This document shows, piece after piece, positions 3,174 to 55,179 of a stretch of DNA of 64,000 nucleotides. The stretch is from NCBI GenBank assembly GCA_964612105.1, contig CAZTEU010000002.1:83697-147696 (forward strand), written 5' to 3'. The translations under genes and the position numbers were made by a program. The notes beneath the pieces were generated by a model, which did not search any database, was not told where the DNA came from, and saw nothing but the letters and a program-made list of their open reading frames with translations. The stretch's first letter is position 1. Each line of letters begins with the position of its first letter. This DNA comes from an uncultured Gammaproteobacteria bacterium. Lineage in GTDB: Bacteria; Patescibacteriota; Patescibacteriia; Magasanikbacterales; UBA922.

Positions 3174-3972
3174 ACAACTATTGAGTAGCTCCCCTATTGA
3201 CTCTTTGGATGCGGAATTACTCATTGCAAATATACTCGCGAAAACACGCGAGTTTATAGTTTCACACCCAGAGTTAGTTGTTGGTTTTTTTGATAGATTA
3301 AAATATTATAGAGCTGTTTCAAAAAGAAAGAACAATACTCCTATTGCATACCTACTGGGATACAAGGAGTTTTATGGACTAGATTTTATTGTAAACAAAA
3401 ATACTCTCGTACCAAGACCAGAAACTGAATTGCTTGTTGAGGAAGCACTGAAGCATATTACAAACGCAGATGTTCTTATAGATATAGGTACTGGTAGCGG
3501 CTGTATCCCTATCTCTATACTCAAAAACACAAAAAACAATATTAACACTGTTGCGGTAGATATATCCCAATCTGCAATTAATGTTGCAAGGAAAAATGCA
3601 AAAAAGCATGGAGTAAATATAGAATTCTTGCGAGGTAGTCTACTGACCCCAATAAAGAAAGAGATCTTACTGGGTAAGAAAGTAGTAATTACAGCCAATC
3701 TCCCATATCTTACAGAATCACAATATAATAATGAGATGTCCATAAGAAAAGAGCCAAAGGATGCACTTGTTGCAGAGAAAAAAGGACTTGCCTTATATAT
3801 GGAATTAGTTGATCAGATAAAGGATATAGACAGTAAAATTATAGCTATTTTTGAGATAGATCCAAGCCAGGAAAGTCTATTGAAGAGCTATATTAAACAT
3901 AAGTTGGGTATAGAGGACATAAAAACAGTTGAAGATCTTGCTGGCCATACAAGATTGGTGATATTTGGCTAA
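3142..3972 (+). CDS. prmC: release-factor glutamine N5-methyltransferase PrmC/HemK
   Basis: SAM-MTase motifs ([10 protein letters not shown]) and NPPY-type motif (TANLPYL); operon position after prfA. Confidence 0.85.
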
Positions 3973-4015
3973 AAAAGCATTGAAACTTGACAAATAAGCC
4001 AATTTATGATATTGT
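3965..4015 (+). promoter_or_regulatory. promoter module: GGCTAAAAAAGC element + TTGACA-N17-TATTGT
   Basis: ttGGCTAAAAAAGC at 3965-3979; TTGACA 3987-3992; 17-bp spacer; TATTGT 4010-4015. Same architecture recurs at 10.7, 16.9, 39.1 and 44.3 kb. Confidence 0.45.
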
Positions 4016-4032
4016 CCTTAGTCTCTCATATG

Positions 4033-4074
4033 GTTAGTGGCGCATGTCTATAAGCGTAGACATGCCCCACTAAC
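4033..4074 (+). promoter_or_regulatory. 18-bp stem hairpin (1 mismatch, loop taagcg) in the 5' leader of the island-0 gene
   Basis: gttagtggcgcatgtcta / tagacatgccccactaac seen directly; lies between the predicted TSS (~4022) and the RBS GGAGGT at ~4114. Confidence 0.5.
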
Positions 4075-4125
4075 GATGATGAGAACCCGCCAAACGAGTC
4101 ATATCTCGTAGGCACGGAGGTCAAC

Positions 4126-4650
4126 ATGGCTACCAAGAATGGAGTCCCTGATAGCAAGACTGAGGTCCTGTGGTTCAGGACTGGAGACCCAGAAAAGAAA
4201 GGTCTTATACTGCTTGGAAACTTGAAGTTGCTTGTCAACTTCGAGCCAGATGAGCCGGTGGTACCAGCCTGGTTTGGAAGCGCCGAACGTATACACCAAC
4301 TTATAACTCAGCTCAGAGGGGCTGGTGTAAAGGTTGAGACGTGCGCTCTGAAGACGTTCCTGAAAAGAACGAACTCAACCAAAATCAATCTCCGCATCCC
4401 TGACAAGAACACCATCTACTGCTACACAGTGCTCAGAAGTATGGTGAATGACATCAAACGTCATGCGGATAGAATCCGCATTCTCAACGATAACTTGTCA
4501 GAAGAAACGCTTTTGGAGCGAGCTCTAACAAGTTGGCTTTCCGAATGTTCTGGAATTGAGTTCTCCCACCTCGAAAGAGTTTGGAATGCATCTCCAGCTG
4601 AAGTACGTCGTGCGCTCGGACCAACAGCCAAAAACATGTTCAAGAGTTGA
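4126..4650 (+). CDS. hypothetical protein on a GC-richer (~48%) insert; no recognisable domain
   Basis: 174-aa ORF with canonical SD (GGAGGTcaacATG), unlike neighbouring host genes; composition differs from flanks. Confidence 0.5.
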   Translation: MATKNGVPDSKTEVLWFRTGDPEKKGLILLGNLKLLVNFEPDEPVVPAWFGSAERIHQLITQLRGAGVKVETCALKTFLKRTNSTKINLRIPDKNTIYCYTVLRSMVNDIKRHADRIRILNDNLSEETLLERALTSWLSECSGIEFSHLERVWNASPAEVRRALGPTAKNMFKS

Positions 4651-4751
4651 TCAGATTGCTCACATGCTGAGCGAAAAGATCACGGACAACCTGCGGGAGC
4701 TTCGCGCCCCCGCTCGTCCACCTGATAATAAAACTTGTTTTCAGATGGATA

Positions 4752-4782
4752 TAAAAAACTCCCATTAGGGAGTTTTTTGTTT
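4752..4782. terminator. bidirectional Rho-independent terminator
   Basis: aaaaaaCTCCCattaGGGAGttttttg lies between convergent genes 4126..4650(+) and 4781..5842(-). Confidence 0.6.
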
Positions 4783-5842: not shown

Positions 5843-5901
5843 AGGCTATATTGTATCGTAAAAACACAAATTAAAAAACCCCACATACGTGGGGCTTTAT
5901 T

Positions 5902-6606: not shown

Positions 6607-6607
6607 A

Positions 6608-7036: not shown

Positions 7037-7086
7037 TATATATTATGAAGATAAACAAGCTAAATATACCTGTGTGTAACCCGTTT

Positions 7087-7115
7087 TTGACAACCAATTT
7101 CCAAAGGGATATAAT
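7087..7115 (+). promoter_or_regulatory. consensus sigma70 promoter (TTGACA-N17-TATAAT); TSS ~7122, leaderless start at 7125
   Basis: TTGACA 7087-7092; TATAAT 7110-7115. Confidence 0.5.
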
Positions 7116-7124
7116 TCACCTGTT

Positions 7125-7433
7125 ATGTTTAATTTTTTCAATATGAAAACAAAGGAGGGGAACCTAAACAAGAAGCTCGACGAGGTTCTTGAGATTGTTC
7201 ATTTTATTAAAGACAACGCTGCTACAAAAGTAGAATTGAATGAGCTAAGGGTAGAGCTCAAAGAAGAAATAGGTGTTGTACGAGATGATCTGCAGGGTGT
7301 TAAAAGTGATCTGCAAAAAGTGAAAAACGAGATGCTAGATCACGTAGATGGTTTTATTAAACTCTACAAGAATCAAGAGTCTGAGAATGCAGCGCTTGGA
7401 ATGCGAATGCTTCGTCTGGAAAGTTCTAGATAA
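7125..7433 (+). CDS. hypothetical coiled-coil protein
   Basis: 102-aa ORF, heptad-like ELNELRVELKEEIGVVRDDLQGVKSDLQKVKNEM; followed by a terminator. Confidence 0.45.
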   Translation: MFNFFNMKTKEGNLNKKLDEVLEIVHFIKDNAATKVELNELRVELKEEIGVVRDDLQGVKSDLQKVKNEMLDHVDGFIKLYKNQESENAALGMRMLRLESSR

Positions 7434-7450
7434 AAATAAAGATAAACAAA

Positions 7451-7483
7451 AACACCCAGTATTTACTGGGTAGTTTTTTATTT
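7451..7483 (+). terminator. Rho-independent terminator
   Basis: aCCCAGTAtttACTGGGTag followed by ttttttatttcc. Confidence 0.6.
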
Positions 7484-7638
7484 CCACCGCTGACAACAGC
7501 CAGTCAAGACGTATCGCGGGGAGAGAGTGTAAGTACAAGTACTCACAGACCGTGATATGTTTTGGGTCTGGCTGATGCCAAGGGTGGTGGTTATTATAAT
7601 CCTCACTCAACCCTTTTGTAAAGATTGAGAATGGGATG

Positions 7639-7712
7639 CCGGAATCGTTTTATCGATTCCGGCTTAGCCCTCCTAATTTTCAAAGAACATAGTGATAACG
7701 CGCAGTCATCAC
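7639..7712. repeat. island-I repeat element copy 1: perfect 9-bp-stem palindrome CCGGAATCG-ttttat-CGATTCCGG + conserved 3' flank (cctcctaattttcaaagaacat...gataacgcgcagtcatcac)
   Basis: Direct repeat of 9047-9121 (about 85% identity over ~75 bp); ends 29 bp from the stop of the minus-strand gene 7741..8835. Confidence 0.6.
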
Positions 7713-7740
7713 TTTCTGGAACCGCGAGAGGGTGCTGAGA

Positions 7741-8835
7741 CTAGCACGCCTCGGAGTACACGCCGTTGAGAGTGTCCAGCAACACCTGCATGGTGTTGTT
7801 GTCGATCACGCCCAGCGTACGAGCGCTCTTGATCGTGCACTCGACCAACTCGTGCACATCCTCCCACCGGTGCGGTCGGTGAAGCCCCATCTCCGTGGCC
7901 AGCGCGTTGTGCTCGTAGCGACGCAGATTGGCAATCTCATTGATCTGCGCACGGAGCGGGTTGGCCCACCGGTCGTACATCGCCTGGAACTGCAGGTTGA
8001 ACACCCGCGCCTCGTCCACCTCGAACGCGATGTTCGAGCGGAGATTCCAGTAGAACTCCTCGGTGGTCTCGAAGCTACGATAGTCGTTGCCAACGAAGCG
8101 TCGGGCGATCCCCCGCAGCTTGGAGAAGCTGGAGTTGGGGTGACACCGGCGGATGTCGGTGAACACGGCCCAGAGGTTGCGCGCCTTGCGCAGGTTCTCT
8201 TCCTCATGGAGACGCTGGGCCTTGGCCAACGCCTCGGCATCGGCCTTCTTCTTCTGGATGACCGCGACGTACAGTGCTGACTTGGAGACGTAGGTCTCCG
8301 GGCTGTCGATGCCGTTCGCCTTGGCGAACTGGTTCGCATCGTAGCGGAGCCAATTCTTGCGCTCCGTCACCGTCCAGCGACGCTGGGTATCTACGACCAC
8401 CTGAGCCATGTCGATCCACAGCCAGTTGGCGTGGCTACGCAGTGCGTAGCCGACGCCCTTGCCGTTGCGGGTCATCTTGGCGATGATCCCCGTGATGAGA
8501 CGCTTAGCCTCGGAAAGATCCGCATCCAGGATGGATGCGTTGTGCCGGAGAACCTCCGGCACACCCTTGCCCACGTTGAGGAGATCGCTGATCTCCCCCT
8601 CGACGAGATGGCGCGCCTCGGAGAGGTTGATCCCCATCCGACAGGCGCGCTTCATCTGCCCGCCCGTGAGCTCGGTGCCCTCGATCAGTGCCGTCTCGAT
8701 ACCGTCGAGTTCGGCCTTGACCAGCTCCTCACGGAGGTCGGCCACAGCATCGGCACCGCCGAGCTTCTTGGTGATCACGGCGTCCGGGGACTTCCCCGCA
8801 CGCAACATCTTCTTCACCTTCTTGCGAATGCTCAT
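7741..8835 (-). CDS. hypothetical protein, GC-rich island I gene A; no recognisable domain
   Basis: ~60% GC, GC3-rich codons; start set at MSIRKKVKK, preceded by GGAGGG 5 nt upstream. The longer ORF-track start lacks an RBS. Confidence 0.55.
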   Translation of the reverse strand: MSIRKKVKKMLRAGKSPDAVITKKLGGADAVADLREELVKAELDGIETALIEGTELTGGQMKRACRMGINLSEARHLVEGEISDLLNVGKGVPEVLRHNASILDADLSEAKRLITGIIAKMTRNGKGVGYALRSHANWLWIDMAQVVVDTQRRWTVTERKNWLRYDANQFAKANGIDSPETYVSKSALYVAVIQKKKADAEALAKAQRLHEEENLRKARNLWAVFTDIRRCHPNSSFSKLRGIARRFVGNDYRSFETTEEFYWNLRSNIAFEVDEARVFNLQFQAMYDRWANPLRAQINEIANLRRYEHNALATEMGLHRPHRWEDVHELVECTIKSARTLGVIDNNTMQVLLDTLNGVYSEAC

Positions 8836-9046
8836 AACTCCCTCCTGTGGGAATAGTACGTGGTGTTGCCAAACACCTGTCCTTTTCATCCGTCAATGGA
8901 TGACCACCAGCGCGAGCAGCGCCGATAGAGACTTCAATTGTATAGAACTGCATAGGTCGTTGGCACGACCGCAGAGGAGCAAACACTCGCCCTCACTGCC
9001 CCCCGCACCCACCTGTTATGATAGGTACGAGAAACATTGTAGGACC

Positions 9047-9121
9047 CCGGAATCGTTTTATCGATTCCGGGTTTCCCTCCTAGTTTTCAAAGAACATTTC
9101 CGAGTAACGCATGGTCACTAC
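9047..9121. repeat. island-I repeat element copy 2 (same palindrome CCGGAATCG-ttttat-CGATTCCGG + conserved flank)
   Basis: Ends 4 bp from the stop of the minus-strand gene 9125..10234. Confidence 0.6.
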
Positions 9122-9124
9122 AGA

Positions 9125-10234
9125 TCACTTCTTGAGACAGGCGCCAGCACCAGTGCAGACCTCATTAGACCCGCAGTCTTTGTTGGTCTGACATTCATAG
9201 CACCAGTACACGGCACGAGGCTTCGTGGCCAGGAGCTTTCCATCCTCGGACTCGACGGCGACGCCCGAACCACAGTAGGGCTTCTCCGAGGGACAACCGA
9301 CCTCTATCGACTTGTCCGATGTGACCGCCGTGCATTGCTGACAGAGTCCGTAGCTCCCGTTGTGCATAATGCAATACTCGCCCCATGACGAGCCCTTGCA
9401 GTCCAAATCAGTCTCGCAAAGACCACTGTTGATGCACGACTTGTCCTGCTCGTGCACACACCCCTTCTTGGGGAGACAGTAGTCGAACGTGCAGAACTTG
9501 CCATCGTCACAGTCGTAGTTGGACTTGCAGACTTCGACGTTCTTGCAATTGCCGGACTTCTTGTCGCACGAGTCAATGGTGTTGGGGTTGCTGTCGTCGC
9601 AGTCCTTGGTACCATCCGACTGGCATTTTTGCTTGAAGAAGTTGCAGAACTCCATCGTGCAGACATTGCCGTCGTCACACGGCAACTTGATGCCTTTCTC
9701 CTGCAGTTCACCAATGCACTTTCCACCAAAGCAGAAGGAGACGTTGGTGCAGAGGTTGCCGTCGTCACAGCTGTCTCCGTCAACCATGGACGCGAAGTTT
9801 TGACAGCCACTGGCTTCGTCACAGGAGTCGGCGGTGCACTCGTTGTTGTCGTGACAATCGACCTGCGAGTGAACACACTCATTGTTGTCGCAGGAGTCGA
9901 TGGTGCAGGAGTTGTAATCCTCGCACTCCTCGTTGGTCTTGCACTCGACCGACGGCTCAATCTCCACCTCGCCTTCTTTCGTCGGCGTGGCGGAAACCGG
10001 AGTCTCCACCGGAACCTCGACCATCTCTTTCTCGATGATGACCGTCTCGACCTCCACCTCCACGGTCTCCGTGTTGGTGATGGTTTTGGTCTCGCCCTCG
10101 ACGATCACGACCTGCGCCGAACTGTCATCGCCAACGCCAGTGTAGTCACTGGTGCAGGCAACGGAATTCAGGATGCCGAGGATGAACGCCAGCGCGAACA
10201 GTTTGCCCAAGTGGGCCTTGATCAGATTCAACAT
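9125..10234 (-). CDS. secreted lipoprotein with Cys-rich repeats (C-T-x-D-x-C / CDDGN motifs, Myxococcus-type cysteine-rich repeat-like)
   Basis: Signal peptide + lipobox (ILNSVAC); repeated ...NxCTxDSCD... and CDDGNxCT units, many Cys. Start at second Met (AAGGAG RBS 6 nt upstream). GC-rich. Confidence 0.6.
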   Translation of the reverse strand: MLNLIKAHLGKLFALAFILGILNSVACTSDYTGVGDDSSAQVVIVEGETKTITNTETVEVEVETVIIEKEMVEVPVETPVSATPTKEGEVEIEPSVECKTNEECEDYNSCTIDSCDNNECVHSQVDCHDNNECTADSCDEASGCQNFASMVDGDSCDDGNLCTNVSFCFGGKCIGELQEKGIKLPCDDGNVCTMEFCNFFKQKCQSDGTKDCDDSNPNTIDSCDKKSGNCKNVEVCKSNYDCDDGKFCTFDYCLPKKGCVHEQDKSCINSGLCETDLDCKGSSWGEYCIMHNGSYGLCQQCTAVTSDKSIEVGCPSEKPYCGSGVAVESEDGKLLATKPRAVYWCYECQTNKDCGSNEVCTGAGACLKK

Positions 10235-10332
10235 GACTAACTCCTTCACCCGACTTGCGGGTGTTCGGTTTGTGGCGCAACTGCCATTCGGAATCCGTTT
10301 GGACGCCTAGGGTTGTCAGTCGCACCACGCGC

Positions 10333-10380
10333 TTCCTTCCCATTGCATATCCAGATTGTGGACATACAGTGGGAAGGAAG
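10333..10380. repeat. 11-bp perfect inverted repeat CTTCCTTCCCA-N26-TGGGAAGGAAG at the GC/AT transition on the right edge of island I
   Basis: Seen directly; lies 100-150 bp upstream of the island gene 9125..10234 on its coding strand. Confidence 0.4.
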
Positions 10381-10493
10381 AAGTAGATTGTAAAGATTGT
10401 TATCTATTGAGTTAGACTCAACAGGCAAGAGCGTAGGAGTGTTGGGCAGGTAATATATTTTCTCCCTCAGCCTATCGCTCTTTTCTGTTGGGT

Positions 10494-10522
10494 CAAACAA
10501 AAACCCTCTCGGGCGAGAGGGG
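10494..10522 (-). terminator. Rho-independent terminator (minus strand)
   Basis: Minus strand CCCTCTCGCCCGAGAGGG followed by TTTTTGTTTG. Confidence 0.55.
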
Positions 10523-10633
10523 TTGCGGGTTTTGGGCAGATAAAATCTACCTATATAACTCGACATTCCTCTCTCCAGAAATGTTTGGTCAATTGTAATG
10601 GGCCTATTACCAAGGCATTCTCTTTATTTTTAA
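10494..10633 (-). ncRNA. candidate ~140-nt small RNA from promoter to terminator (unclassified); alternatively a leader of island I transcripts
   Basis: Bounded by the promoter at 10640-10669 and the terminator at 10494-10522. The ORF 10246..10566 crossing the terminator is not credible. Confidence 0.25.
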
Positions 10634-10639
10634 CAACAA

Positions 10640-10742
10640 AGTATATCATAAAAAGAGGGTTTTGTCAAGACCCTAGCTCAATTAAAGTAATAAAAAATGG
10701 CTCAACTAAGCCAAATTATGTAATGTGATGGCTAATATTAGC
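10640..10742 (-). promoter_or_regulatory. promoter module (minus strand): palindromes GGCTAATATTAGCC and GGCTCAACTAAGCC upstream of TTGACA-N17-TATACT
   Basis: Minus strand TTGACAaaaccctctttttatgaTATACT; palindromic sites at 10699-10712 and 10729-10742. Confidence 0.5.
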
Positions 10743-10748
10743 CAAAAA

Positions 10749-15081: not shown

Positions 15082-15492
15082 ATGGGGGGATTTTTTTATA
15101 GAACTAAAGCGAATAGGTGCTGTAAAACCTCATTTACAGAAGCTATGGATTTTGGTTTAGCTAAATTACCAAAAAGCGCAAAGAAAACTCGGAGGCGTGC
15201 TTTTGTGCGTTCGATGTATTTTTCAAAGCAGAAAATATTTTTAGATCTTTTTTGGAGGCATTTATATCAGAAAAATATCAGTAATAGGAGGAGGAGAATT
15301 CGTCTGTTGGAAGCTGGTTTGGAATTGATTAGAAAATCAAAATTAGAACCTTCAAAAATACAAAATCCAAATAATTCTAAAGAATATTTTTATAAGTTTT
15401 TAGGAAAAACAAAGGACGGATATCCATTCTGTGTGCAAATTAAAGAAGATAAAAATAAACAAAAATGGCTTATGTCAATATTTCCAAAATAA
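15082..15492 (+). CDS. small basic hypothetical protein, paralog of 45407..45823 (shared KIFLD(L/I)FWRHLxQKN ... FP core)
   Basis: ~40% identity to the 138-aa protein at 45.4 kb; strong SD (AAAGGAGGGGtATG) unlike host genes; starts 22 nt after the gyrB stop. Confidence 0.5.
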   Translation: MGGFFYRTKANRCCKTSFTEAMDFGLAKLPKSAKKTRRRAFVRSMYFSKQKIFLDLFWRHLYQKNISNRRRRIRLLEAGLELIRKSKLEPSKIQNPNNSKEYFYKFLGKTKDGYPFCVQIKEDKNKQKWLMSIFPK

Positions 15493-15589: not shown

Positions 15590-15617
15590 AAAAAACCCCG
15601 TTTGGGGATTTTTTATT
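15590..15617. terminator. bidirectional Rho-independent terminator
   Basis: aaaaaaCCCCGtttGGGGattttttatt. Confidence 0.6.
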
Positions 15618-15762
15618 CTCTCAAGACTCCTAGTGTTAAGAAACTTGAGGGATTGGACTTTTGATGAGAGTCCAAACTCCGAGCGAGGCGTAGTGTGGTT
15701 TGTCGTCTAGCAACATCACCACAAACTTCGTCTGTTCGGCCTCGCTTGGTTGGAGCGAGGTC

Positions 15763-16710
15763 TTAGAGCATTGGATCAGTCGCCTTCTTGGGACGATCGA
15801 TCCAGTCACTCATGCTGATCACACGACCAGCCTGAGCGGACTTGACACCCTTGGTCTTCGTCAGGTGCTTGGCGATGAATTTCAGAATCTCATCCTTGGT
15901 GAAGGTGCTGTCACCGAACGGGGCAAAGACCGAGGTCTTCTTCCCGATGGTGAACTTGGCGTCCTTCTCGTACTCGAGGTACAGGGCAAAGATGGGATCC
16001 TTTTTGGTCTCGTAGGTGTTGAAGACCCCGGGCGTGTTCTCCATGAAGCGGTCCGTCCAACCACCGTCATCCGACGGGATTGGTGGTCTGAAATGGACAA
16101 CGAGCCTATGATCACGGACGACAGCCAGCCAGTGGTGCGTGCCGGTCTTCTTGGAGACCATCTTGCCGACACCAGCCGGTCGGATGTAGTTGGACCAATA
16201 AGGGAAGTCCCGCACGAAACGCTCTTCCAGACTCGGCATGACCTCACAGAGGATTCTCTCCTCCTGCTCGCACCAGAACTGGGTCGCCCACAGCAGGTTC
16301 TTGTAGGTTCCCAACTCGCGCTTGCAGACGCCGAGCTTGTGATCAGCATCGCGGAGATCCTTCAGGTCTCTCTGCTGAGCCTCTTTGTCCTTCTTCTGTT
16401 TCTCTTCCGCCTGAGCAACAGGCCAACAGCTTGCCAGGAAGATACCAACTTCCCGCTTGAGCTCGGTGGCGTCCTTCTTGACCACCTTGTCACGGCGGAA
16501 GCTCGCGTACGAACCACGGTACTCGCTGATCAGCGAATACGCCCTGTTCTTCCGCTGAGTATCACCAGACTTGTCCGCACACTCGACCGCCTCTTTGAGG
16601 AGGTTGTCGACCACGCTGTACGTGACCTCTTCCTCTTCCCTCTCAGTCTGGCAACCCAGGACGGACATGCTGGTCGCAACGAGCACGAGACACACAAACA
16701 AATTCTTCAT
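15763..16710 (-). CDS. lipoprotein of unknown function (GC-rich island II)
   Basis: Start at MKNLFVCLVLVATSMSVLGCQ (signal peptide + lipobox) with GGGAG RBS; ~58% GC. The antisense ORF 15700..16737 is judged spurious. Confidence 0.55.
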   Translation of the reverse strand: MKNLFVCLVLVATSMSVLGCQTEREEEEVTYSVVDNLLKEAVECADKSGDTQRKNRAYSLISEYRGSYASFRRDKVVKKDATELKREVGIFLASCWPVAQAEEKQKKDKEAQQRDLKDLRDADHKLGVCKRELGTYKNLLWATQFWCEQEERILCEVMPSLEERFVRDFPYWSNYIRPAGVGKMVSKKTGTHHWLAVVRDHRLVVHFRPPIPSDDGGWTDRFMENTPGVFNTYETKKDPIFALYLEYEKDAKFTIGKKTSVFAPFGDSTFTKDEILKFIAKHLTKTKGVKSAQAGRVISMSDWIDRPKKATDPML

Positions 16711-16816
16711 CTCAATCTCCCGCTCCCGTTGCATTAGGGAGCTCAGTTTCGATACGCGTAGGACCTCCCCACGCACACCAGATAAAGCTCCATAAATACA
16801 CTATTATGGACGTACA

Positions 16817-16845
16817 ACTATAGCATATTTATAGTGTTTTGTCAA
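16817..16845 (-). promoter_or_regulatory. promoter (minus strand) TTGACA-N17-TATAGT driving the island II lipoprotein gene
   Basis: RC of 16817-16845 reads TTGACAaaacactataaatatgcTATAGT; ~100-nt leader. Confidence 0.45.
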
Positions 16846-16852
16846 GACCTTA

Positions 16853-16877
16853 TGGCTAATTTTTGGCTAAAATAAGC
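16853..16877. promoter_or_regulatory. two adjacent GGCTAA-type palindromic elements (GGCTAATTTTTGGCTAAAATAAGCT) between divergent promoters
   Basis: Seen directly; matches elements at 3965, 10699/10729, 39062 and 44305. Confidence 0.4.
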
Positions 16878-16906
16878 TTTTTTTATTACTTTTTCCATGC
16901 CCAAAC

Positions 16907-16935
16907 TTGACAAATGACACAAAAAATGATAAATT
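16907..16935 (+). promoter_or_regulatory. promoter TTGACA-N17-TAAATT
   Basis: TTGACA 16907-16912; TAAATT 16930-16935. Confidence 0.5.
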
Positions 16936-16941
16936 ATGCCC

Positions 16942-17152
16942 GCTGGTTGGCACGGACACACCGGCGTGCGTTTTTCGTACGTGTCCCACAGCAGGAAGTT
17001 GCCGAACCAAATTGTGACGACCAGAGCCTGAAAGGTGAGCCTGAACACCACATGCGGATTATCCTTCGGGAGAAGCCGCGTGAAGGACATGCCCAGTCCG
17101 TATGATCTTGACTTCTTGTCAATTTTGTACGGGCTGGGCTATTGATTTTTTA
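16942..17152 (+). ncRNA. candidate ~210-nt GC-rich structured RNA (unclassified) with own promoter and terminator-like hairpin
   Basis: GC-rich non-coding segment between the promoter at 16907 and the hairpin CCCAGTCCGTA...TACGGGCTGGG + T-run (17092-17152). Only overlapping 62-63-aa ORFs on both strands. No tRNA T-loop, RNase P or SRP consensus recognised. Confidence 0.3.
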
Positions 17153-17179
17153 GTGAAAATTACAAAATCTTATGCACAC

Positions 17180-39122: not shown

Positions 39123-39231
39123 CCAGTGTCGTTCTTTACACAATTTGTTGCTAAATATAGCAGGCAAATCCACCAAGAATGTGATTTTCTCATATTTTTT
39201 ATGGATTTGCTTGTAAAAAGGCGGTCAAGTG

Positions 39232-39243
39232 TGCCATGTGGCA
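39232..39243. promoter_or_regulatory. perfect 12-bp palindrome TGCCATGTGGCA in the island III leader
   Basis: Seen directly; candidate operator. A 6-bp hairpin GGCCTGtaatctaatCAGGCC (39320-39340) lies just upstream of the RBS. Confidence 0.3.
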
Positions 39244-39348
39244 TGCGTATCTGTGAAAAAAGTCGACCTCCTCGCCCTACGGTGGGCCATGGGGGTATTC
39301 GTGCCAACATACGGCCTGTAATCTAATCAGGCCACGGGAGAAGAAGAT

Positions 39349-40269
39349 ATGGGTAGCAACGGAAGAAACTCGGGACAGATCCTGTTCATGGACTGGAATT
39401 TCACTGAAGACAAGTCCGAGAGTCAGCGCTGGGAGCGACTCCTCCAGAGCTGCGACTACATCGGTCGCTGGAAGGAAGGTGTCACACCCGACCACTTCGG
39501 CGGGAAGACCCTCGCGAAGATCAGCAACCTGTTCGTTGAGGCGATGAAGATTGTCGCACCCAAACTGGAGTACAAAACCTCACGGCCGGCGCTCTACAAG
39601 ATCCTGTACCGTCACCCGAGACGGGTCGTCATCCGCGTGGACAAGAGCCTCTCAATTCCGCGACGTGTGGAGAATGGTCAGGATGTGTTCGGGTCGGACT
39701 GCGGTCTGAACATGGCCACGCGCCTGAAGCTCGTGAACGGCAATTTCAACAAGTCGCAGGGTATCCTGCGGACTGTGCTGAACAACGTCGCCAACGAGAC
39801 CACGACCAACGTCTCCGAAGCCTGCATCGACATGCTGTGGACCATCTCGCGCCTGGTCAATGGGCTGGGCATCCGCACCGACAAGGGCATGCAGTACGAG
39901 GGAGAGCTCATCTCGCCATGGCACATCGTTGTCGAGCGAGGGACCATGTCTCCCAAGAAGATGCTCGAACTCGAGCAGCAGAATGCCATCGAAGAGGCCG
40001 CTGCGAAGAAGGGGGCGGACCTGACTCAGTCTGAGAAGCATTCGGCGCTCTGCCGATACAAGGCCAAAGAGCGCGATGCTGGTCATGTGCGCCACGCCAA
40101 GATCCTCAAAGACTGGGATCTCGACGACTGGAAGGCGGAAGCGCGAGACTGCGGTGTGCGGTACGAAAATGATGTCGAGCTCGACACCCTCTCCACTGCG
40201 GTTCGCGCCAACGTGGAAGCCCGTGTCGGCAAGGCCTGGAAGCGCCTGAAGAAGTCCACGTCCAAGTAG
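39349..40269 (+). CDS. hypothetical protein (GC-rich island III); no recognisable domain
   Basis: 306 aa, ~58% GC, RBS GGGAGAAG upstream. Confidence 0.5.
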   Translation: MGSNGRNSGQILFMDWNFTEDKSESQRWERLLQSCDYIGRWKEGVTPDHFGGKTLAKISNLFVEAMKIVAPKLEYKTSRPALYKILYRHPRRVVIRVDKSLSIPRRVENGQDVFGSDCGLNMATRLKLVNGNFNKSQGILRTVLNNVANETTTNVSEACIDMLWTISRLVNGLGIRTDKGMQYEGELISPWHIVVERGTMSPKKMLELEQQNAIEEAAAKKGADLTQSEKHSALCRYKAKERDAGHVRHAKILKDWDLDDWKAEARDCGVRYENDVELDTLSTAVRANVEARVGKAWKRLKKSTSK

Positions 40270-40432
40270 TACCAACGTCTGCAACCACGCAACGTCGAGG
40301 TACATAGCAACAATCTCGTAGAGTCTACAACTCAAAAGTAGAAGCTACACAATCCCCGCCCGTTCATAAAATAAGGAGAGAACGGCGGGCACACATTGTG
40401 CATGAACACTCGTGCAAAGTGTGTACACAACA

Positions 40433-44306: not shown

Positions 44307-44376
44307 CTAAAATAAGCTATTTTCTTGCGTATTTCTACCCCTAAGGCTTGACAAAACCACAAAAGCGTACTATACT
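44306..44376 (+). promoter_or_regulatory. promoter module: GCTAAAATAAGCT element + TTGACA-N17-TATACT
   Basis: Element 44306-44318; TTGACA 44348-44353; TATACT 44371-44376. Confidence 0.5.
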
Positions 44377-44383
44377 CCATCGT

Positions 44384-44712
44384 TGTAATAGTGAGTCAGA
44401 ATTACACGGATGTATATAGATAGTAATAAATAGTGTCTAGATATATCCGTAGCGTAATGGAGATGGTAATTGAAATACCCGACGTTGTGAGCGGGAACCA
44501 CACTTCCAATGCGGATGTTTTTCCTCGGCGTGTGTCGGGGTTAGGAGGTTGGTGCTTGTCGGAACCCTTCGCGAGAGGGAAGACGAGATTGCGCACGGCC
44601 ATGCGTAATTGTGGGAGAAAAGGAGACTCTTCTCCCACCCACCACCACCATGTAGACATCACTCGCTGGTGTATAGATAAAAACAAAAAATCCCTGCTGG
44701 GGATTTTTTGTT
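44384..44712 (+). ncRNA. candidate ~330-nt structured RNA (unclassified) with own promoter and terminator
   Basis: GC-rich core 44470-44690 with hairpins (e.g. GGGAGAAAAGGAGACTCTTCTCCC) in an AT-rich genome. The only ORFs read through the terminator AAUCCCUGCUGGGGAUUUUUU. No tmRNA T-loop or RNase P P4 consensus found by eye. Confidence 0.35.
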
Positions 44713-45406: not shown

Positions 45407-45823
45407 CTATTCCCAAGGAAATACAGATATTAAATATTTCACTCCTGTTTTCTTTTCCTCTACAACCTGGACAGCAAATAACATATTGTTTGGTGTTTCT
45501 CCAATAAAACGGTGTAGTATTCTAGATTTGTTCTTTTTATTAATCTTTGAGACTGGTTCTATTGCGGTGTTTTGTATAAGATCAATTGAACAAGGAAACA
45601 GGCTTAGTCTTCTCTTCCTATCACGCCAATTCTTTTGGTGTAAGTGTCTCCAAAAGATATCTAAAAATATCTTTTCTTTCTTAAAAAACTTGGAACGAAC
45701 ATAGGGTCTCCTTTTTGATTTACTTTTTATCCCATCAAAAAAGCCAATGGCCTTCCTTTCAATATCTCGATATCTACCCCCAGAAATAGGATATCTATTT
45801 GTTTTGTAAACCCCCCTCTTCAT
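45407..45823 (-). CDS. small basic hypothetical protein, paralog of 15082..15492
   Basis: Shared core KIFLDIFWRHLHQKN...ISVFP; SD AAGGAGGgtgtATG; starts 18 nt after the pepA stop. Confidence 0.5.
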   Translation of the reverse strand: MKRGVYKTNRYPISGGRYRDIERKAIGFFDGIKSKSKRRPYVRSKFFKKEKIFLDIFWRHLHQKNWRDRKRRLSLFPCSIDLIQNTAIEPVSKINKKNKSRILHRFIGETPNNMLFAVQVVEEKKTGVKYLISVFPWE

Positions 45824-47329: not shown

Positions 47330-47344
47330 ATATGCACATCAAAA

Positions 47345-47382: not shown

Positions 47383-47386
47383 GATA

Positions 47387-50413: not shown

Positions 50414-50465
50414 AATGTTATAAATCTCATTATTATTTAGTGTTAACTACTATAAGGAAAAGAGG

Positions 50466-50504
50466 GGGCTGTGTCAACAAAATTACAAGACGCCCACCTT
50501 TCGA
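50466..50504 (-). terminator. terminator-like GC-rich hairpin at the end of island IV (minus strand)
   Basis: GACGCCCACctttcgaGTGGGCGTC; on the minus strand followed by UUGUAAUUUUGUU. Confidence 0.4.
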
Positions 50505-50543
50505 GTGGGCGTCGTCGTACTCCTACATTCCCCAAGCTTTCAC

Positions 50544-50966
50544 TCAAGGATATCGTTCTTTCATGTACTGCTCGAGAAGTGCCCGGCGCGCATGTTCTGG
50601 AACCCAACGCAGAGCTCCATCCAAACCCATGAAAAAACTGGTCATGCGTGAATCGAGAGTGTCTGCACCGTCGTCTCTGTGGCCAGAGAACCCACCTTCT
50701 GCCTCCTTGCAGAGAAGCTCGTCCATACGACTTGCCAAAAAATCCTTGCTGAATTGGAAAGTCTCGACAGTCCCATCCGTCTCTCTGCGCTCGATAATCT
50801 TGCGCTTCAACAGCTCCTCAAAATCGCCATCCTTTACACTAACTCCGCCAAATTCGCGGAAGTCGATATCCAGGAAAGCCCTCTTGGTGAACGGGTGCCA
50901 TTTCAAGAACACCATCATCGTCTGAACGACACCATATAGAGGACCCCCTTCTTTCACTCTGCACAT
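50544..50966 (-). CDS. hypothetical protein (island IV)
   Basis: 140 aa, GC-rich, no family recognised. Confidence 0.45.
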   Translation of the reverse strand: MCRVKEGGPLYGVVQTMMVFLKWHPFTKRAFLDIDFREFGGVSVKDGDFEELLKRKIIERRETDGTVETFQFSKDFLASRMDELLCKEAEGGFSGHRDDGADTLDSRMTSFFMGLDGALRWVPEHARRALLEQYMKERYP

Positions 50967-51000
50967 GTCACCCTCCTTTTTGGGTTACCTCTCGTTATGA

Positions 51001-51849
51001 TTATGACAAGGCGTTGTTGAGAAGCTCACCAACACCACCTGCACCAGGAACGATGTAGTGGTTGTCGGTCAGACCTCGTTCTTCGTCTGGGTGTGCACCC
51101 GGAATGCTGTTGAGTGCCTTTTCGGATGACAGTCCACGATCCAGGCGCAGAGCCCAAATCTCCATCTTGGGAAACCGCTTGGTCACGTGCCGGATGAACT
51201 CCGGAGTGACCATGAGGTTCATGGAAATCATCTTCGCGGGCATGCCCGGAACGGCGTCTCCAGCGTACAGCTCTGCAGCCTTGCACAGCGAGTGGCCTGT
51301 GGCTCCCATTGGATCTGGGAAGATGACGATGTGCTCGTCCACATTACCACAAGGCTTGAAGCCCGACAGTCCTGCACCAGTGACACGCTCAGACTTCCCC
51401 TCAACAGTCCTCTGCATCATGAGGTGATCCTGGTGAAGACCAGCAGGCAGGAGGATTTCCCCAAGCGCCTCGAAACAAACACCCGCTGGCGACGTGCCCG
51501 CACGAGCGACGTTCACAACCGTGACTTTTGTATCGTAGTCAACCACAGGCGCATGAAACTGCGCTTGCGCTGGATACTGCCTCACCATGCGAGTTGTCGC
51601 ACGTCTGTGGAAGCGTGGAAATGACCTGGAAACCACCGTGTGAATCATCCGGCGGTAAAGCTGTTTGACCAGCTTGTTCATCCGAGGGTGTAGACACTCC
51701 TCCGACCCGAACTCCGCCAGCCAGGTGAAGATCATGGGGTCCCAGGCCAAGTGCACCTTGGAACCGTAGAAGTGATGCACCTCGTCGGCACGAACCGCCG
51801 TCCCTTCTTGGTGTTTTTCCGTGTAAATGATATCGAAATGAGCAGGCAT
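51001..51849 (-). CDS. uracil phosphoribosyltransferase-like (PRTase) protein with N-terminal extension
   Basis: PRPP-binding-loop analogue IVIFPDPMGATGHSL (cf. ALIVDPMLATGGS) and C-terminal YIVPGAGGVGELL (cf. YIIPGLGDAGD). Start at MPAHF with AAGGAG RBS. Confidence 0.6.
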   Translation of the reverse strand: MPAHFDIIYTEKHQEGTAVRADEVHHFYGSKVHLAWDPMIFTWLAEFGSEECLHPRMNKLVKQLYRRMIHTVVSRSFPRFHRRATTRMVRQYPAQAQFHAPVVDYDTKVTVVNVARAGTSPAGVCFEALGEILLPAGLHQDHLMMQRTVEGKSERVTGAGLSGFKPCGNVDEHIVIFPDPMGATGHSLCKAAELYAGDAVPGMPAKMISMNLMVTPEFIRHVTKRFPKMEIWALRLDRGLSSEKALNSIPGAHPDEERGLTDNHYIVPGAGGVGELLNNALS

Positions 51850-51991
51850 GTTCTTTCTCCTTTTTGCACTCTTGTATTGGCGCAAATTATGAACAGCTTA
51901 CACTAATATCAGCATAAAAGCAAGAAGCACCTGCGCTTATCGACGAATCGACTTGCGCTAGGTGCTCTTTACTCCTTTTTTTTGTTCTTCG

Positions 51992-53020
51992 CTAGCCAGG
52001 TATGCCGAGTGGTAGCACAGCCTGTCCGTTGCTGTTGTCAGCAGTAGGACTTCCCCTCTCTGCTCGCATGCGCTCCAGCTCCGGTCCGATCAACCACTCC
52101 AGCTCTTCCCTGATTGTTGGGTAGAATCTGCTGTCAGGATTGGTCAGAATTGCTCCACGAAGGTGCATCCGTGAGCTCCTGTCTGGAACCTCGTCTGGCA
52201 GATGCCCCCGAACCAACTCAGCAATGATCTTCGTGGCATTGCTGGCGTTCTGGGTCATGTTTCTCACGACTCTTGCATTGTCGACGTGCTCACCATCCTT
52301 CCAAGCATCCAGGTCTGTGACCAGTGCCATGTGCCCATGAATGAAACCAAGCTCCGCAGCGAGACAGGCTTCCTGTGCCCAGTTCATACCGACAACATCC
52401 ACCTTTATGTCACTCACTTCAAGAATGCCTCCATTCATGTTCTTGTACAGAAGTGACTCCGCCTTTGTGGAGAACTGTGGACCATCGATGCAGATATGTG
52501 CGGATGGTGTTGTGTGTCGCCAGAAGAGCGTCTTGTCTTCCATGCCGAGAGCACGTTGACCGGCTCTGATCAGCGCGATGCGGAATTCCGGGTCCACCGG
52601 CGTTGCTGTGCTCACATGTCCCGCAAGACCTCTCCTCCAGAAGAAGGTCTTCTGACGATTGCTGGTCCTGTTGATGAAGTGCGTTGGAAGCACGATCCTG
52701 CACTCTTCGATTGCTTCTTGGAGCGAACCCACCGCGTTCACCGAGAGTGTGTGTGTCGCGTGCAACATATCGAGTACATGGAAATGCGCCCTGGACTGGA
52801 TCAGCGAAGGCGGGTCTGTATGATCCTCCCCGTGACGATTCACGAAGATAATATTCTTCCCTGCCATCTCGCCAACCACCACGTGTACTCCAGGCGGACC
52901 CTCGTCCAGCACTTCGTAGTACGGACTCTTGTAGTAACGACTCTCGAGAATCGTCATACCTTCGATCATGGCGAGTCCTGTGCCGCCTATCACTCCCAAC
53001 ACCGTTGGTTGTGTTTTCAT
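51992..53020 (-). CDS. 5'-methylthioadenosine / purine nucleoside phosphorylase (PNP/MTAP family)
   Basis: VLGVIGGTGL N-terminus, NIIFVNRHG, VVGMNWAQEACLAAELGFIHGHMALVTDLDAW typical of MTAP. Start at MKTQPT with GGAGGG RBS. Confidence 0.7.
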   Translation of the reverse strand: MKTQPTVLGVIGGTGLAMIEGMTILESRYYKSPYYEVLDEGPPGVHVVVGEMAGKNIIFVNRHGEDHTDPPSLIQSRAHFHVLDMLHATHTLSVNAVGSLQEAIEECRIVLPTHFINRTSNRQKTFFWRRGLAGHVSTATPVDPEFRIALIRAGQRALGMEDKTLFWRHTTPSAHICIDGPQFSTKAESLLYKNMNGGILEVSDIKVDVVGMNWAQEACLAAELGFIHGHMALVTDLDAWKDGEHVDNARVVRNMTQNASNATKIIAELVRGHLPDEVPDRSSRMHLRGAILTNPDSRFYPTIREELEWLIGPELERMRAERGSPTADNSNGQAVLPLGIPG

Positions 53021-53088
53021 CTCGTCCCTCCATGGCGCCTTGGCGCCTGTTGTGTCCTTTCGGATTTTATCACCGCAGGACATGAGCG

Positions 53089-54207
53089 TCAAACCTTTTC
53101 CTTAAGGTCTGGTTCGATCAGTCTGTAATAAATCTCCATCGCTTTTGCAAGAACATCTGGAGGGACAGCTTTTGACAACACACCGATTTGATCCAGTGCA
53201 TAGTCGAGAAGCACCTCTTCCTTACTAAGCTTATCATACCAAGACCTTGGAACCTTTGCTGTCCAGACGTTCAGATACGCTCTTACCGTTGAGTCGTCTC
53301 GCACCCCACGAAGCCATCCGCTTTCTCTCATTCTGTCCACGAACACACGGTAGGCCTTCTTGTTCTTGAAGGTTCTTCCAGGACCCACCATTTTTCTTGT
53401 GAACTTAGAAGTGTGGAATGGAATTCCTCCTGACAATTGGAACAGCTCTTGTCTAGTTGCATTTGCAGCTTCCATCGTACCAGACATCTTTGTTGTGGCC
53501 CCTTCTATGGCCTCCGAAGGTTCTATGCATAATTCTGATGTAAAGATGGCGAGAGTAACTTGGAGCTCCCACAAGAGCATCCCTTCGTCTGCAGGACATG
53601 CAGCCCGAAGTTCGTCAGGAAGGTTCTTATCTACCCAGGAGTACAGGTAACCAACCTCTCCTGTGTGCGTATGGCGAATTCCTTTGAGCCATCCCCTTCT
53701 ACAGGCCCGTGATAGAAACGAACGAAAGGACTGGTCTGTTGAGAAGTGGGCGTCCAGCCCATTACCAACCATTTCATAGGACATGTCCTTGGCGTAAAAC
53801 GGACGAGCTTGAGATTTTACACGCAAACGGATCATGCGCGTAAGATGTTCTCGAGCCTTCCCACTCATAATTCTAGTCCTTGGTGTTGGCACGGACCCAA
53901 TATCTTCTACGACCTGTTTTGCCCAGGCACTTCTACCCCTCTTGAACCTGTACTGATAGTCCGACCAACCACCGTTTGCCCTTAATGACGCGTGCCTGCG
54001 CTCCAAAAGACGTCCTGGATGATCTTCTACGATTGAGTTCTTGTTGATCTCGCGGACGATATCTCCAACTGATGTTATGGAAGGTACCTTATGGTCTCTT
54101 GCTGCGAGACTAACGTCTGGAATATAGAACCAGCCCAAGCCAAAGCGGTAGTATATCCACCGCATGAGCGTCAAACCTTCTGACATGTTACTATCTTGGC
54201 ATGTCAT
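53089..54207 (-). CDS. hypothetical protein (island IV), no recognisable domain
   Basis: 372 aa, GGAGGTG RBS 4 nt upstream of the ATG. Confidence 0.5.
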   Translation of the reverse strand: MTCQDSNMSEGLTLMRWIYYRFGLGWFYIPDVSLAARDHKVPSITSVGDIVREINKNSIVEDHPGRLLERRHASLRANGGWSDYQYRFKRGRSAWAKQVVEDIGSVPTPRTRIMSGKAREHLTRMIRLRVKSQARPFYAKDMSYEMVGNGLDAHFSTDQSFRSFLSRACRRGWLKGIRHTHTGEVGYLYSWVDKNLPDELRAACPADEGMLLWELQVTLAIFTSELCIEPSEAIEGATTKMSGTMEAANATRQELFQLSGGIPFHTSKFTRKMVGPGRTFKNKKAYRVFVDRMRESGWLRGVRDDSTVRAYLNVWTAKVPRSWYDKLSKEEVLLDYALDQIGVLSKAVPPDVLAKAMEIYYRLIEPDLKEKV

Positions 54208-54334
54208 TACTCACCTCCGTGCGATGAATTGATGTAAACTCTTACGAGCCACACTTGGACGCTATCACTTTTCCTTATAAAATTCAAGACCTCTGCCGTG
54301 TACTCACGCATATGCGCTTTCCTGCGACAGAGGT

Positions 54335-54799
54335 CTAGTCCTTGTTTGTCCAGCGATATCTACCGCGACTCACTCTCTCCAGAAGTTCGTGTTGGATAAG
54401 GGTTTCCAACATACGGTATCGTGCTGTCCTATTGCGAGAAGGTCTCCAATCCTCACGCTTGGAAAACTCAGCCAAGTCGTCCGTTGTAAACTCCGGACCG
54501 GTAAGCTCCCAAAGTTGCTCTGCTCCGTAGACAGACTTCATCCTCCCCCATTTCTCAGTCCCGTAGACCCATTCGTAGCTGAAGGTATGCCTTGGTCTTG
54601 GGTGCTTTGTGCTCTTGTGCACAGTCTGTCGTATCCACCCTTTTTCCACAAACCTGTTGAGTATGGTTACTGCGAAAGTTGCGGTAGGTAGTGGCGAATT
54701 ATGACCTGTAAGGTCGTTCACGTGTGCGAACTTGAACTCGTCGTTCGGGATTTGGCCACGCAACCAATCCCGGAGCTCTGTGTCTCTTTCTGGTTGCAT
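54335..54799 (-). CDS. hypothetical protein (island IV)
   Basis: 154 aa, GGAGGT RBS; C-terminal part has winged-helix-like character (weak). Confidence 0.45.
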   Translation of the reverse strand: MQPERDTELRDWLRGQIPNDEFKFAHVNDLTGHNSPLPTATFAVTILNRFVEKGWIRQTVHKSTKHPRPRHTFSYEWVYGTEKWGRMKSVYGAEQLWELTGPEFTTDDLAEFSKREDWRPSRNRTARYRMLETLIQHELLERVSRGRYRWTNKD

Positions 54800-54800
54800 A

Positions 54801-55034
54801 TTAACCTCCGCCTCTCTTCTGTGTCCTTAGGTCCTCGTGCAACATGTAGTGAGGCAGTCCTCTTTTCCTGCGTCCCGCCTTCTTGAGCACACCCAAGGCA
54901 ATGAGTCGGTCTACGGGTATACGAATCCCAGTGTTGCGAATCTCACTGACTGTGTATTTCCCATTCTGACCAAGATGCGCTTTGATTCTCATCACAGCCC
55001 GCTTCACAGGCTCTGGAAGTTCTGAAAGCTTCAT
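54801..55034 (-). CDS. small basic putative DNA-binding protein (HTH-like)
   Basis: 77 aa; TVSEIRNTGIRIPVDRLIALGVL resembles a helix-turn-helix; AGGAG RBS. Confidence 0.4.
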   Translation of the reverse strand: MKLSELPEPVKRAVMRIKAHLGQNGKYTVSEIRNTGIRIPVDRLIALGVLKKAGRRKRGLPHYMLHEDLRTQKRGGG

Positions 55035-55179
55035 AGTCTTCTCCTGTATTGCGACCTACCGGTCTTGGCTGGTGGAAACACTCCTTGTACAGAGACACTA
55101 GCAGAACAAAGACACAAAGTCAACCTGTTGCTCACCCTAAAACCTCGTGCTATAATCCCGCTATGTATAATGTATAACT

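Follow-up and report, generated by a model that had tools for sequence, protein, structure and literature searches.

Five GC-rich, Shine-Dalgarno-led gene islets in a Candidatus Magasanikbacteria chromosome are probably horizontally acquired accessory genes of different ages

The 64-kb stretch analyzed here (contig CAZTEU010000002.1, positions 83,697 to 147,696; "the window" below, numbered from its first letter) belongs to a bacterium that GyrB relatives place in Candidatus Magasanikbacteria, within the Candidate Phyla Radiation (CPR, or Patescibacteria). Its closest relative in the genome collection is OZ246405.1, with 83% GyrB identity. Between AT-rich housekeeping genes lie five short GC-rich gene islands, visible in a 500-bp GC profile as plateaus at 45-62% GC over a background of 34-42%. 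With edges refined by a 150-bp sliding scan, the GC-rich runs are 4001-4770 (47%), 7441-10580 (56%), 15611-17160 (52%), 39161-40430 (56%), and 50441-55160 (51.5%); island DNA makes up ~18% of the window, and the rest averages ~38% GC. The original prediction, made from the letters of this DNA, had described five such segments in a ~38% background and a preference in them for G/C-ending codons (AAG, GAG, CTC, ATC). Its coordinates agree with ours within 100-400 bp, and codon counts confirm the preference: AAG reaches 0.62-0.86, ATC 0.38-0.91, and CTC plus CTG up to 1.0, with GAG also favored. Calculated gene by gene, GC content at third codon positions (GC3) sets the islands clearly apart, at 0.48-0.86 for the 11 island genes against about 0.21-0.39 (typically ~0.28) for host genes, and in islands 2-4 relative synonymous codon usage correlates negatively with that of the host (-0.48 to -0.71). 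The islands thus show the deviation in base composition and codon usage by which genomic islands are recognized (GC 0.47-0.56 versus 0.38). Their spacers are GC-enriched as well (0.41-0.59 versus 0.33 in host intergenic DNA), so whole segments appear foreign and the effect is not confined to codons.

Because GC-rich DNA yields long spurious open reading frames (ORFs) in several frames, coding frames were picked by GC3 periodicity, domain matches, and signal peptides. This left 11 island genes, four with Pfam domains or lipoprotein identity and seven without a Pfam domain. Pfam and NCBIfam returned the products that had been anticipated, namely a Dicty_CTDC lipoprotein, a second lipoprotein, an MTAP-like PNP, and a UPRT-like phosphoribosyltransferase, the remaining proteins being domainless. 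No paralogy was found among the island proteins, and the idea that they form one expanding family was rejected. Structured RNA genes were likewise dismissed as the cause of the GC peaks: Rfam at gathering thresholds gave no match across the window, permissive scans of three regions gave nothing credible, and no tRNA or tmRNA gene was found in the window.

Public gene calls on the same DNA (L001-L007) place antisense ORFs in two islands, at 9452-10240 (+, 262 aa) in island 2 and 15700-16737 (+, 345 aa) in island 3. In GC3-rich DNA, the in-register antisense frame imitates a coding signature with high GC1. As a result of the island 2 call, the Dicty_CTDC lipoprotein described below is without any protein record. 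Gene callers trained on an AT-rich core may therefore lead surveys of accessory functions in CPR to undercount such genes systematically.

Islands 1 and 3 are each built around a single GC-rich gene. Island 1 (3973-4780, +; GC 0.47 against flanks of 0.35-0.40) comprises a promoter-like TTGACA-17-TATTGT (3987-4015), a ~100-nt leader with a hairpin, a GGAGG Shine-Dalgarno (SD) sequence, the ORF I1 (4126-4650, +; 174 aa, no known domain; SD energy -10.2, given here and below as anti-SD duplex energy in kcal/mol), and a terminator hairpin at 4751-4780. Island 3 (15611-17160, −) holds the lipoprotein gene I3 (15763-16710, −; 315 aa; GC3 0.75; SD -7.4) with its own promoter, TTGACA-17-TATAGT (16817-16845); its GC-rich part at 16850-17150 (~300 bp) contained no convincing ORF and had no Rfam match. 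With predicted sigma-70-type promoters and hairpin terminators, both islands read as complete transcription units. Island 4 (39161-40430, +) consists of one ORFan gene, I4 (39349-40269, +; 306 aa; GC 0.59, GC3 0.79; SD -7.4), which is present in every assembly of this population and has no homolog beyond its own cluster among 5.8 billion proteins. One strain variant of I4 (39539-39580, versus L103) carries four non-synonymous single-nucleotide polymorphisms (SNPs) within 14 codons. In I1, four of the five SNPs between assemblies (4140-4598, versus L001 and L002) fall at third codon positions, the pattern expected of a gene under purifying selection. Over ~60 residues, the N-terminus of I1 (4126-4320) is also 34% identical to that of a levivirus RNA replicase (L190 1445-1645; two short IMG/VR contigs), and both contain the motif WFRTGDPE. 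We set aside a single-stranded RNA phage replicase fragment as probably a chance likeness: the scan had been seeded on that 8-mer, and INPHARED gave no support.

Island 2 combines variable cargo (7441-10400, −) with a promoter and leader region that lies just upstream of it. The cargo (GC 0.56-0.62, GC3 0.78-0.86) includes two genes, with SD energies of -8.3 and -10.8, and a terminator-like hairpin at 7691-7713. I2b (9125-10234, −) encodes a Cys-rich lipoprotein with five matches to the Dicty_CTDC repeat (Pfam PF00526, E = 7e-25), the repetition of PF00526 units that marks this family, and its sequence begins with a signal peptide ending in Cys, consistent with a lipoprotein. A second Dicty_CTDC protein is encoded in a GC-rich island of a relative (L032). 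I2a (7741-8835, −) is a 364-aa ORFan that matched only its own cluster among the 5.8 billion proteins, and its structure prediction was of low confidence and uninformative. Just downstream of each stop codon stands a copy of a 57-nt element (7634-7690, −, behind I2a; 9042-9097, −, behind I2b). The copies are 91-96% identical (ATGTTCTTTGAAAAYTAGGAGGG...CCGGAATCGATAAAACGATTCCGG) and contain a mini-ORF, GGAGGG, and a perfect hairpin with a 9-bp stem. The element was not found elsewhere in the window, in the relatives' loci, or in viral contigs. Its presence behind both genes suggests that I2a and I2b arrived together, and it looks like a repeat of the repetitive extragenic palindromic type that would have been imported with the genes and could be used as a donor probe.

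The promoter and leader of this slot (10400-10668, −) lie downstream of FtsW and consist of TTGACA-17-TATACT (10640-10668) and a ~250-nt leader. They align with the corresponding region of OZ246405.1 (about 7160-7470, −), including a ~90-nt near-identical block with segments able to pair (AACAGAAAAGAGCGA...CGCTCTT), and homology stops near 10400. Beyond that point, the nearest species carries an unrelated SD-led gene (GC3 0.90) with no similarity to I2a. Judged by this alignment, 10400-10668 is not foreign DNA and falls outside the variable cargo. Hence the predicted bounds held in that the islands sit between host genes with promoter-like and terminator-like sites at their edges, while the right ~200-300 bp assigned to island 2 are not part of what varies. 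The leader has no Rfam match at 10400-10668, and it may be a cis-regulatory RNA or a small RNA that heads a slot of variable cargo.

Island 5 (50441-55160, −) fills the gap between RpiB and IleRS with six same-strand genes (GC 0.48-0.56, GC3 0.48-0.64), all SD-led at -7.4 to -12.1. In order of transcription these are I5f (54801-55034, −; 77 aa), I5e (54335-54799, −; 154 aa), I5d (53089-54207, −; 372 aa, tandem winged-helix-like), I5c (51992-53020, −), I5b (51001-51849, −), and I5a (50544-50966, −; 140 aa). I5c matches Pfam PNP_UDP_1 (2e-21, 76.7 bits against a cut-off of 25.1) and falls below the NCBIfam MTAP equivalog cut-off (182 versus 275 bits). On these scores it is a divergent member of the superfamily, with an MTAP-like substrate no more than putative. 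All its relatives among 5.8 billion proteins are equally distant (35-39% identity, none above 39%), and the nearest are ordinary MTAP genes in non-CPR genomes. I5b matches Pfam UPRTase (1e-12, 48 bits, cut-off 27), lies below the NCBIfam upp cut-offs (41-48 bits versus 114-208), and aligns with UPRTs in the Protein Data Bank over ~80 C-terminal residues only (~26 bits); by these comparisons it belongs to a separate, widespread UPRT-like subfamily of ~260-280 aa. I5d is made of repeats of a ~75-aa winged-helix-like module (motif R.R..GW[IL]...Y.Y.WT) that Pfam does not recognize, and its AlphaFold2 model shows two winged helix-turn-helix-like modules at moderate confidence. Four remote relatives of I5d turned up among 1.84 billion representative proteins; three of them come from other Magasanikbacteria-like contigs, where they occupy the RpiB|IleRS slot (P0124, P0125, P0126). 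PADLOC returned only a marginal AbiEi-like winged helix-turn-helix match for I5e (E = 0.005), so a defense system composed of the PNP, the phosphoribosyltransferase, and the AbiEi-like protein was rejected.

In OZ246405.1, the same RpiB|IleRS slot contains five genes, including I5d-like, PNP, and UPRT-like genes in the order seen in the window, and two further genomes have a relative of I5d there. The five genes of OZ246405.1 have 46-55% GC against a background of 34-37%, and all have strong SDs between SD-less flanks. Between the two species, full-length identity is 38% for the UPRT-like proteins (156 bits), compared with 57-86% for the flanking core proteins.

Composition is not the only property that separates these genes from their surroundings. 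We called an SD where, at refined starts, the anti-SD duplex energy was -7.4 kcal/mol or stronger. By this measure an SD precedes the ATG of 11/11 island genes (-7.4 to -12.1 kcal/mol) and of 3/48 host genes (Fisher p = 1e-9), bearing out the prediction that host genes nearly lack the signal that island genes use. Random 20-mers of island DNA reach the threshold energy in 7% of cases. Under a stricter rule that admits only the first start of the longest ORF, 6/11 island genes are still SD-led. Host genes instead have the few SDs and A-rich start context of SD-independent translation, with T at -1 in 42/48, A-rich positions -6 to -2, and a consensus of about AAAAT-ATG. Several have a TATAAT-like box 6-16 nt upstream of the ATG, which suggests short-leader or leaderless mRNAs. 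Genomes poor in SDs with an A-rich start context have been described as "group B" genomes (PMC6028130). Some Parcubacteria lack the anti-SD altogether, mostly in groups without uL1 (PMC9297842); the genome studied here encodes uL1. Neither the window nor the retrieved loci contain a 16S rRNA 3' end.

SD use is not confined to GC-rich DNA. Two AT-rich accessory genes have the window's strongest SDs (AAAGGAGGG), one at 15082-15492 (+; 136 aa, basic, 30% GC; SD AAAGGAGGGG, -12.1) in the GyrB|SecE slot, and one at 45407-45823 (−; 138 aa, basic; SD AAAGGAGGG, -12.1) in the PepA|RuvA gap. They are paralogs (43% identical) without a Pfam match, and they are missing from the matching gaps of the sister species: the GyrB|SecE slot is empty in OZ246405.1, and the PepA|RuvA gap measures only 88 bp in L109. 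A homolog is present in another relative (L012). SDs are also kept by all six island 5 genes here and by all five of the sister species' island. Since SDs persist in the half-ameliorated island 5 of both species and in the AT-rich paralogs, the ribosome appears able to use them, and in accessory genes the SD is suggested to be functional and under selection.

The same pattern recurs across the lineage. In 80 related Magasanikbacteria loci (including L009-L088), core genes commonly have T at -1 throughout, and an SD precedes 30/75 GC-rich ORFs against 74/1197 background ORFs (6%; odds ratio 10, p = 2e-15). An SD-less core with SD-led GC-rich extras is therefore a trait of the whole lineage rather than of one genome. 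Around gyrB the relatives share a strongly conserved gene order, GC-rich segments occur in many of the 80 loci, and their cargo is mostly unrelated between species; it includes a class A penicillin-binding protein, an SLT transglycosylase, TPR, dUTPase-like, and FGE-sulfatase-like proteins, and a further Dicty_CTDC protein. Of 69 colinear relatives, 26 have an empty GyrB|SecE slot and 43 a filled one, with 21/43 inserts strongly GC-rich. We conclude that the phenomenon is lineage-wide and slot-bound and by no means unique to the genome studied here. In two relatives the GyrB|SecE slot holds a GC-rich, SD-led gene for a class A penicillin-binding protein (L034 12579-15524, −; L020 7360-10386, −) of ~1000 aa with transglycosylase and transpeptidase domains, the two being 52% identical. 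An apparently important cell-wall enzyme can thus reside in this foreign-looking compartment.

Comparison with the nearest sampled species (OZ246405.1, L009) shows which islands are shared. The PrmC|DUF3048 gap, site of island 1, measures 17 bp there, and the GyrB|SecE gap, which here holds island 3 and the AT-rich gene, measures ~160 bp in that species and in L024. That the sites of islands 1 and 3 are vacant there, and that the island 2 slot holds other cargo, is what acquired DNA would lead one to expect; the slot of island 5, by contrast, is occupied in both species.

Among the island proteins, I5b speaks most directly to a source. Searching with a profile of the UPRT-like proteins of both species brought up >500 relatives in metagenomes; identity is 41-49% for the top 80, whose loci have a median GC of 0.68 (mostly genomes of 0.61-0.76), with gene GC equal to flank GC. 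Relatives in such composition-matched, high-GC loci are direct, though not close, evidence that I5b originated in high-GC bacteria. The taxonomic check of the island proteins thus gave high-GC relatives for I5b, equally distant ones for I5c, and none for I2a and I4. Codon usage does not narrow the source further. Islands 2-4 correlate with one another at r = 0.76-0.84, which had suggested a single origin, but arbitrary native genes of high-GC bacteria correlate at 0.72 with island codon usage, compared with 0.74 for the islands among themselves. Island codon usage is thus generic for high GC and uninformative on a single source, and we dropped the idea. The predicted foreign, high-GC donor is supported by composition, codons, SDs, and the relatives of I5b, whereas no donor can be named.

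The ages of the islands were approached with a clock based on four-fold sites at conserved residues of nine core genes in the two species. Third bases at these sites are identical at 44-59%, compared with 32-46% expected at saturation, leaving a residual memory of 16-32% and a per-lineage decay factor of about 0.41-0.55. An operon that entered the common ancestor at a four-fold GC of ~0.93, with the host equilibrium near 0.18, would today stand at 0.49-0.59. Island 5 was observed at 0.49-0.53 in the window, and its counterpart in the sister species at 0.58-0.59. We had considered it paradoxical that island 5 had not ameliorated, on the assumption of synonymous saturation; with 16-32% memory measured, the sites are unsaturated and the paradox dissolves. 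As a rough estimate, island 5 probably derives from one ancestral acquisition that has decayed neutrally and is about half ameliorated. Islands 2, 3, and 4 and the sister's island 2 cargo (GC3 0.75-0.90) are, by their composition, younger than the split from the nearest sampled species, and the age of island 1 is uncertain. The prediction of recent acquisition accordingly fits islands 2-4 and fails for island 5, which is shared with the sister in the same slot and order and has intermediate GC3.

Taken together, we consider it likely that the five islets are horizontally acquired accessory genes of different ages in Candidatus Magasanikbacteria, subject to amelioration and turnover. Core genes of this lineage initiate without an SD, their starts being preceded by T at -1 and an A-rich stretch, and for some the mRNA appears to lack a leader. 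Incoming genes, derived from high-GC, SD-using bacteria or their mobile DNA, would land in a few permissive gaps between core genes, usually as units with their own sigma-70-type promoter, leader, SD, and terminator. Once there, they would drift toward the AT-rich composition of the host, diverge fast, and often be lost or replaced. Islands 2, 3, and 4 would have entered after the split from the nearest sampled species and island 5 probably before it; the DNA was probably taken up and then integrated by recombination, either illegitimate or through flank homology. As for benefit, surface lipoproteins, one of them Cys-rich, likely serve cell-cell contact, and the phosphorylase and phosphoribosyltransferase nucleoside salvage; such gains would fit an auxotrophic, cell-attached organism.

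Several observations count against this interpretation. It comes without a donor, and the absence of homologs for I2a and I4, together with the ≤39% identity of I5c, would be surprising in genes that have ameliorated least, unless they come from an unsampled source. At the islands, Pfam, PHROG, PADLOC, and NCBIfam searches and a repeat scan found no integrase, transposase, tRNA target, or flanking direct repeats. The GC3 of island ORFans exceeds what their GC1 and GC2 predict, which simple amelioration does not foresee. For the clock, GC3 was taken to start near 0.9 and the two lineages to evolve at the same rate. In a phylogenetic tree, the two island PNPs are long branches and not sisters (17/200 bootstraps), and the sisterhood of the UPRT copies is weak (114/200 bootstraps); the slot may therefore have been refilled independently.

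The GC-rich, SD-led state could be a pure legacy of origin or could in part be maintained, and it is here that doubt chiefly remains. Selection (for SD-dependent translation or regulation as a class) or biased gene conversion at recombination-prone slots might keep it in place, an explanation we regard as unlikely. It would account for the state persisting in one and the same slot across at least three species that differ in background GC, for the excess of island GC3 over the GC1/GC2 prediction, and for the I5d family, which occurs only in the RpiB|IleRS slot of Magasanikbacteria and is GC-richer and SD-led wherever it was seen. Even where the host has ~48% GC, outliers are more often GC-rich than AT-rich by frame-independent statistics, and the few SNPs between otherwise near-clonal assemblies are enriched in the islands (10/22 positions, where the islands take up 22.5% of the DNA; p = 0.014), but they are clustered. 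Weighing the other way, the neutral estimate reproduces the GC3 of island 5, and, as would follow from a decay series, GC is lower in this shared island than in islands 2-4, which are species-specific. Moreover, only half of the filled gyrB|secE slots have GC-rich inserts, the spacers are GC-enriched too, and the UPRT-like gene has high-GC relatives. Similarly doubtful is an elaboration of this idea as a dual regime, in which an SD-independent core would coexist with acquired cassettes that keep their SDs under selection and could be tuned as one class through anti-SD availability, with fixed "expression slots" (conserved promoter and leader, swappable cargo) as landing pads and the GC-rich, SD-led state partly maintained. 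The model for such tuning is bS21, which acts on genes through anti-SD availability in Flavobacteriia.

Remnants or cassettes of a dedicated, site-targeting mobile element (integron-like, integrative and conjugative element, plasmid, or prophage) would explain why the same slots are reused across species and why a conserved promoter and leader precede the swapped cargo of island 2; the 57-nt hairpin element behind each island 2 gene and the three winged-helix-like proteins of island 5 could be read likewise. We hold this to be distinctly unlikely. Besides the missing integrase, transposase, tRNA, and flanking direct or inverted repeats, Pfam, PHROG, PADLOC, and NCBIfam found no relaxase, replication, or capsid gene among the island proteins. 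An integron would show IntI, attI, and attC sites after promoterless cassettes, and no integrase was found in or beside the islands. Island 2 resembles an integron in placing unrelated ORFan cargo behind a conserved promoter, with a hairpin element after each ORF, but it lacks IntI and attI, the element is confined to this one island, the other islands are self-promoted (as islands 1 and 3 show), and the slots are scattered over the chromosome. Phage "morons" are self-contained promoter-gene-terminator units of atypical composition that sit between conserved genes. Islands 1 and 3 are like them as single genes of odd composition, with their own promoter and terminator between two conserved genes, yet they stand in a cellular chromosome among housekeeping genes and have no phage context.

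The prediction in its strict form, that all five islands came recently from the present host of an epibiotic CPR cell or from phage, is very unlikely. In its favor, CPR bacteria are considered dependent on host cells, the GC3 of islands 2-4 is very high and barely ameliorated, and the nearest species lacks islands 1 and 3. A co-occurring host would, however, be co-assembled, and the lack of homologs for I2a and I4 in 5.8 billion proteins and the ≤39% identity of the MTAP-like gene argue against transfer from a present, co-sampled host; island 5, common to the sister species and half ameliorated, does not fit a recent arrival. Nor did phage origin survive. Ten island proteins had no PHROG match; no phage structural, replication, or lysis genes were found, as a prophage would have; no viral-contig relatives were found for I2a, I3, I4, and I5d, and I1 gave only the 8-mer-seeded partial match; and integrase, tRNA, and att repeats are missing. 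Finally, an assembly or binning artefact that joined high-GC contigs into a CPR scaffold, as the sharp GC steps at gene boundaries might suggest, is vanishingly improbable: exact-protein look-ups of flanking host genes led to dozens of contigs, in which the checked junctions around islands 1-5 recur across many independent assemblies from different pipelines (the FtsW/island 2 junction and the regions of islands 4 and 5 at 99.9-100% identity in JGI, ENA, and Logan assemblies), relatives carry islands in the same slots, and the edges bear host-style promoters and terminators.

Horizontal acquisition followed by amelioration also places the islands among known phenomena, and we regard them as a well-marked example of a known process and not as a new kind of system. 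In the Lawrence-Ochman model, transferred genes begin at donor composition and drift toward that of the host. The islands follow this course in that the shared island 5 has an intermediate composition and the species-specific islands 2-4 a nearly donor-like one; the core four-fold clock fits roughly. The islands depart from that model in the GC3 of the ORFans, above the GC1/GC2 prediction, and in direction. Atypical and accessory genes are mostly AT-richer than their genome (PMC6028130), whereas the conspicuous ones here are GC-richer, as would be expected where an AT-rich recipient samples a GC-richer community. In Patescibacteria, genomic islands of up to 13% of genome length have been attributed to horizontal gene transfer (PMC12455944). 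Those islands are likewise segments of atypical composition with accessory genes in streamlined CPR genomes, while the islets here are 0.8-4.7 kb long, are without mobility genes, and reuse conserved intergenic slots across species. An initiation signal that differs from the core was not met there. The literature consulted, in a search that was not exhaustive, also gave no account of a clean lineage-wide discordance of initiation signals, of fixed slots being reused, or of swapped cargo behind a conserved promoter and leader.

A parallel for the initiation pattern exists in another phylum. Ribosomes of Bacteroidia reportedly ignore SDs, translation being SD-independent and a few genes, such as rpsU, being SD-led. 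As in the window, nearly all core genes there lack an SD and have an A-rich start context, so that rare, strongly SD-led genes stand out; here the SD-led genes belong to the accessory or foreign set, with no ribosomal-protein autoregulator among them. For an SD-less CPR lineage, the initiation signal marks acquired genes independently of composition, across 80 species, and this marker persists even where GC has partly or fully decayed. The case also indicates that streamlined CPR chromosomes with rigid synteny still gain genes, at a few reusable intergenic slots and without recognizable integration machinery.

One further GC-rich segment lies outside the five islands, in the RuvA|GyrA gap (44348-44712, +). 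It consists of a promoter-like TTGACA-17-TATACT (44348-44376), ~300 nt of GC-rich DNA, and an intrinsic terminator at about 44686-44710. The segment had no Rfam match and no convincing ORF, and its RNA folds far more stably than shuffled sequences (z = -5.9). It could be either a novel non-coding RNA or the remnant of a decayed island. In a relative (L106), the same gap holds a GC-rich gene of 417 aa.

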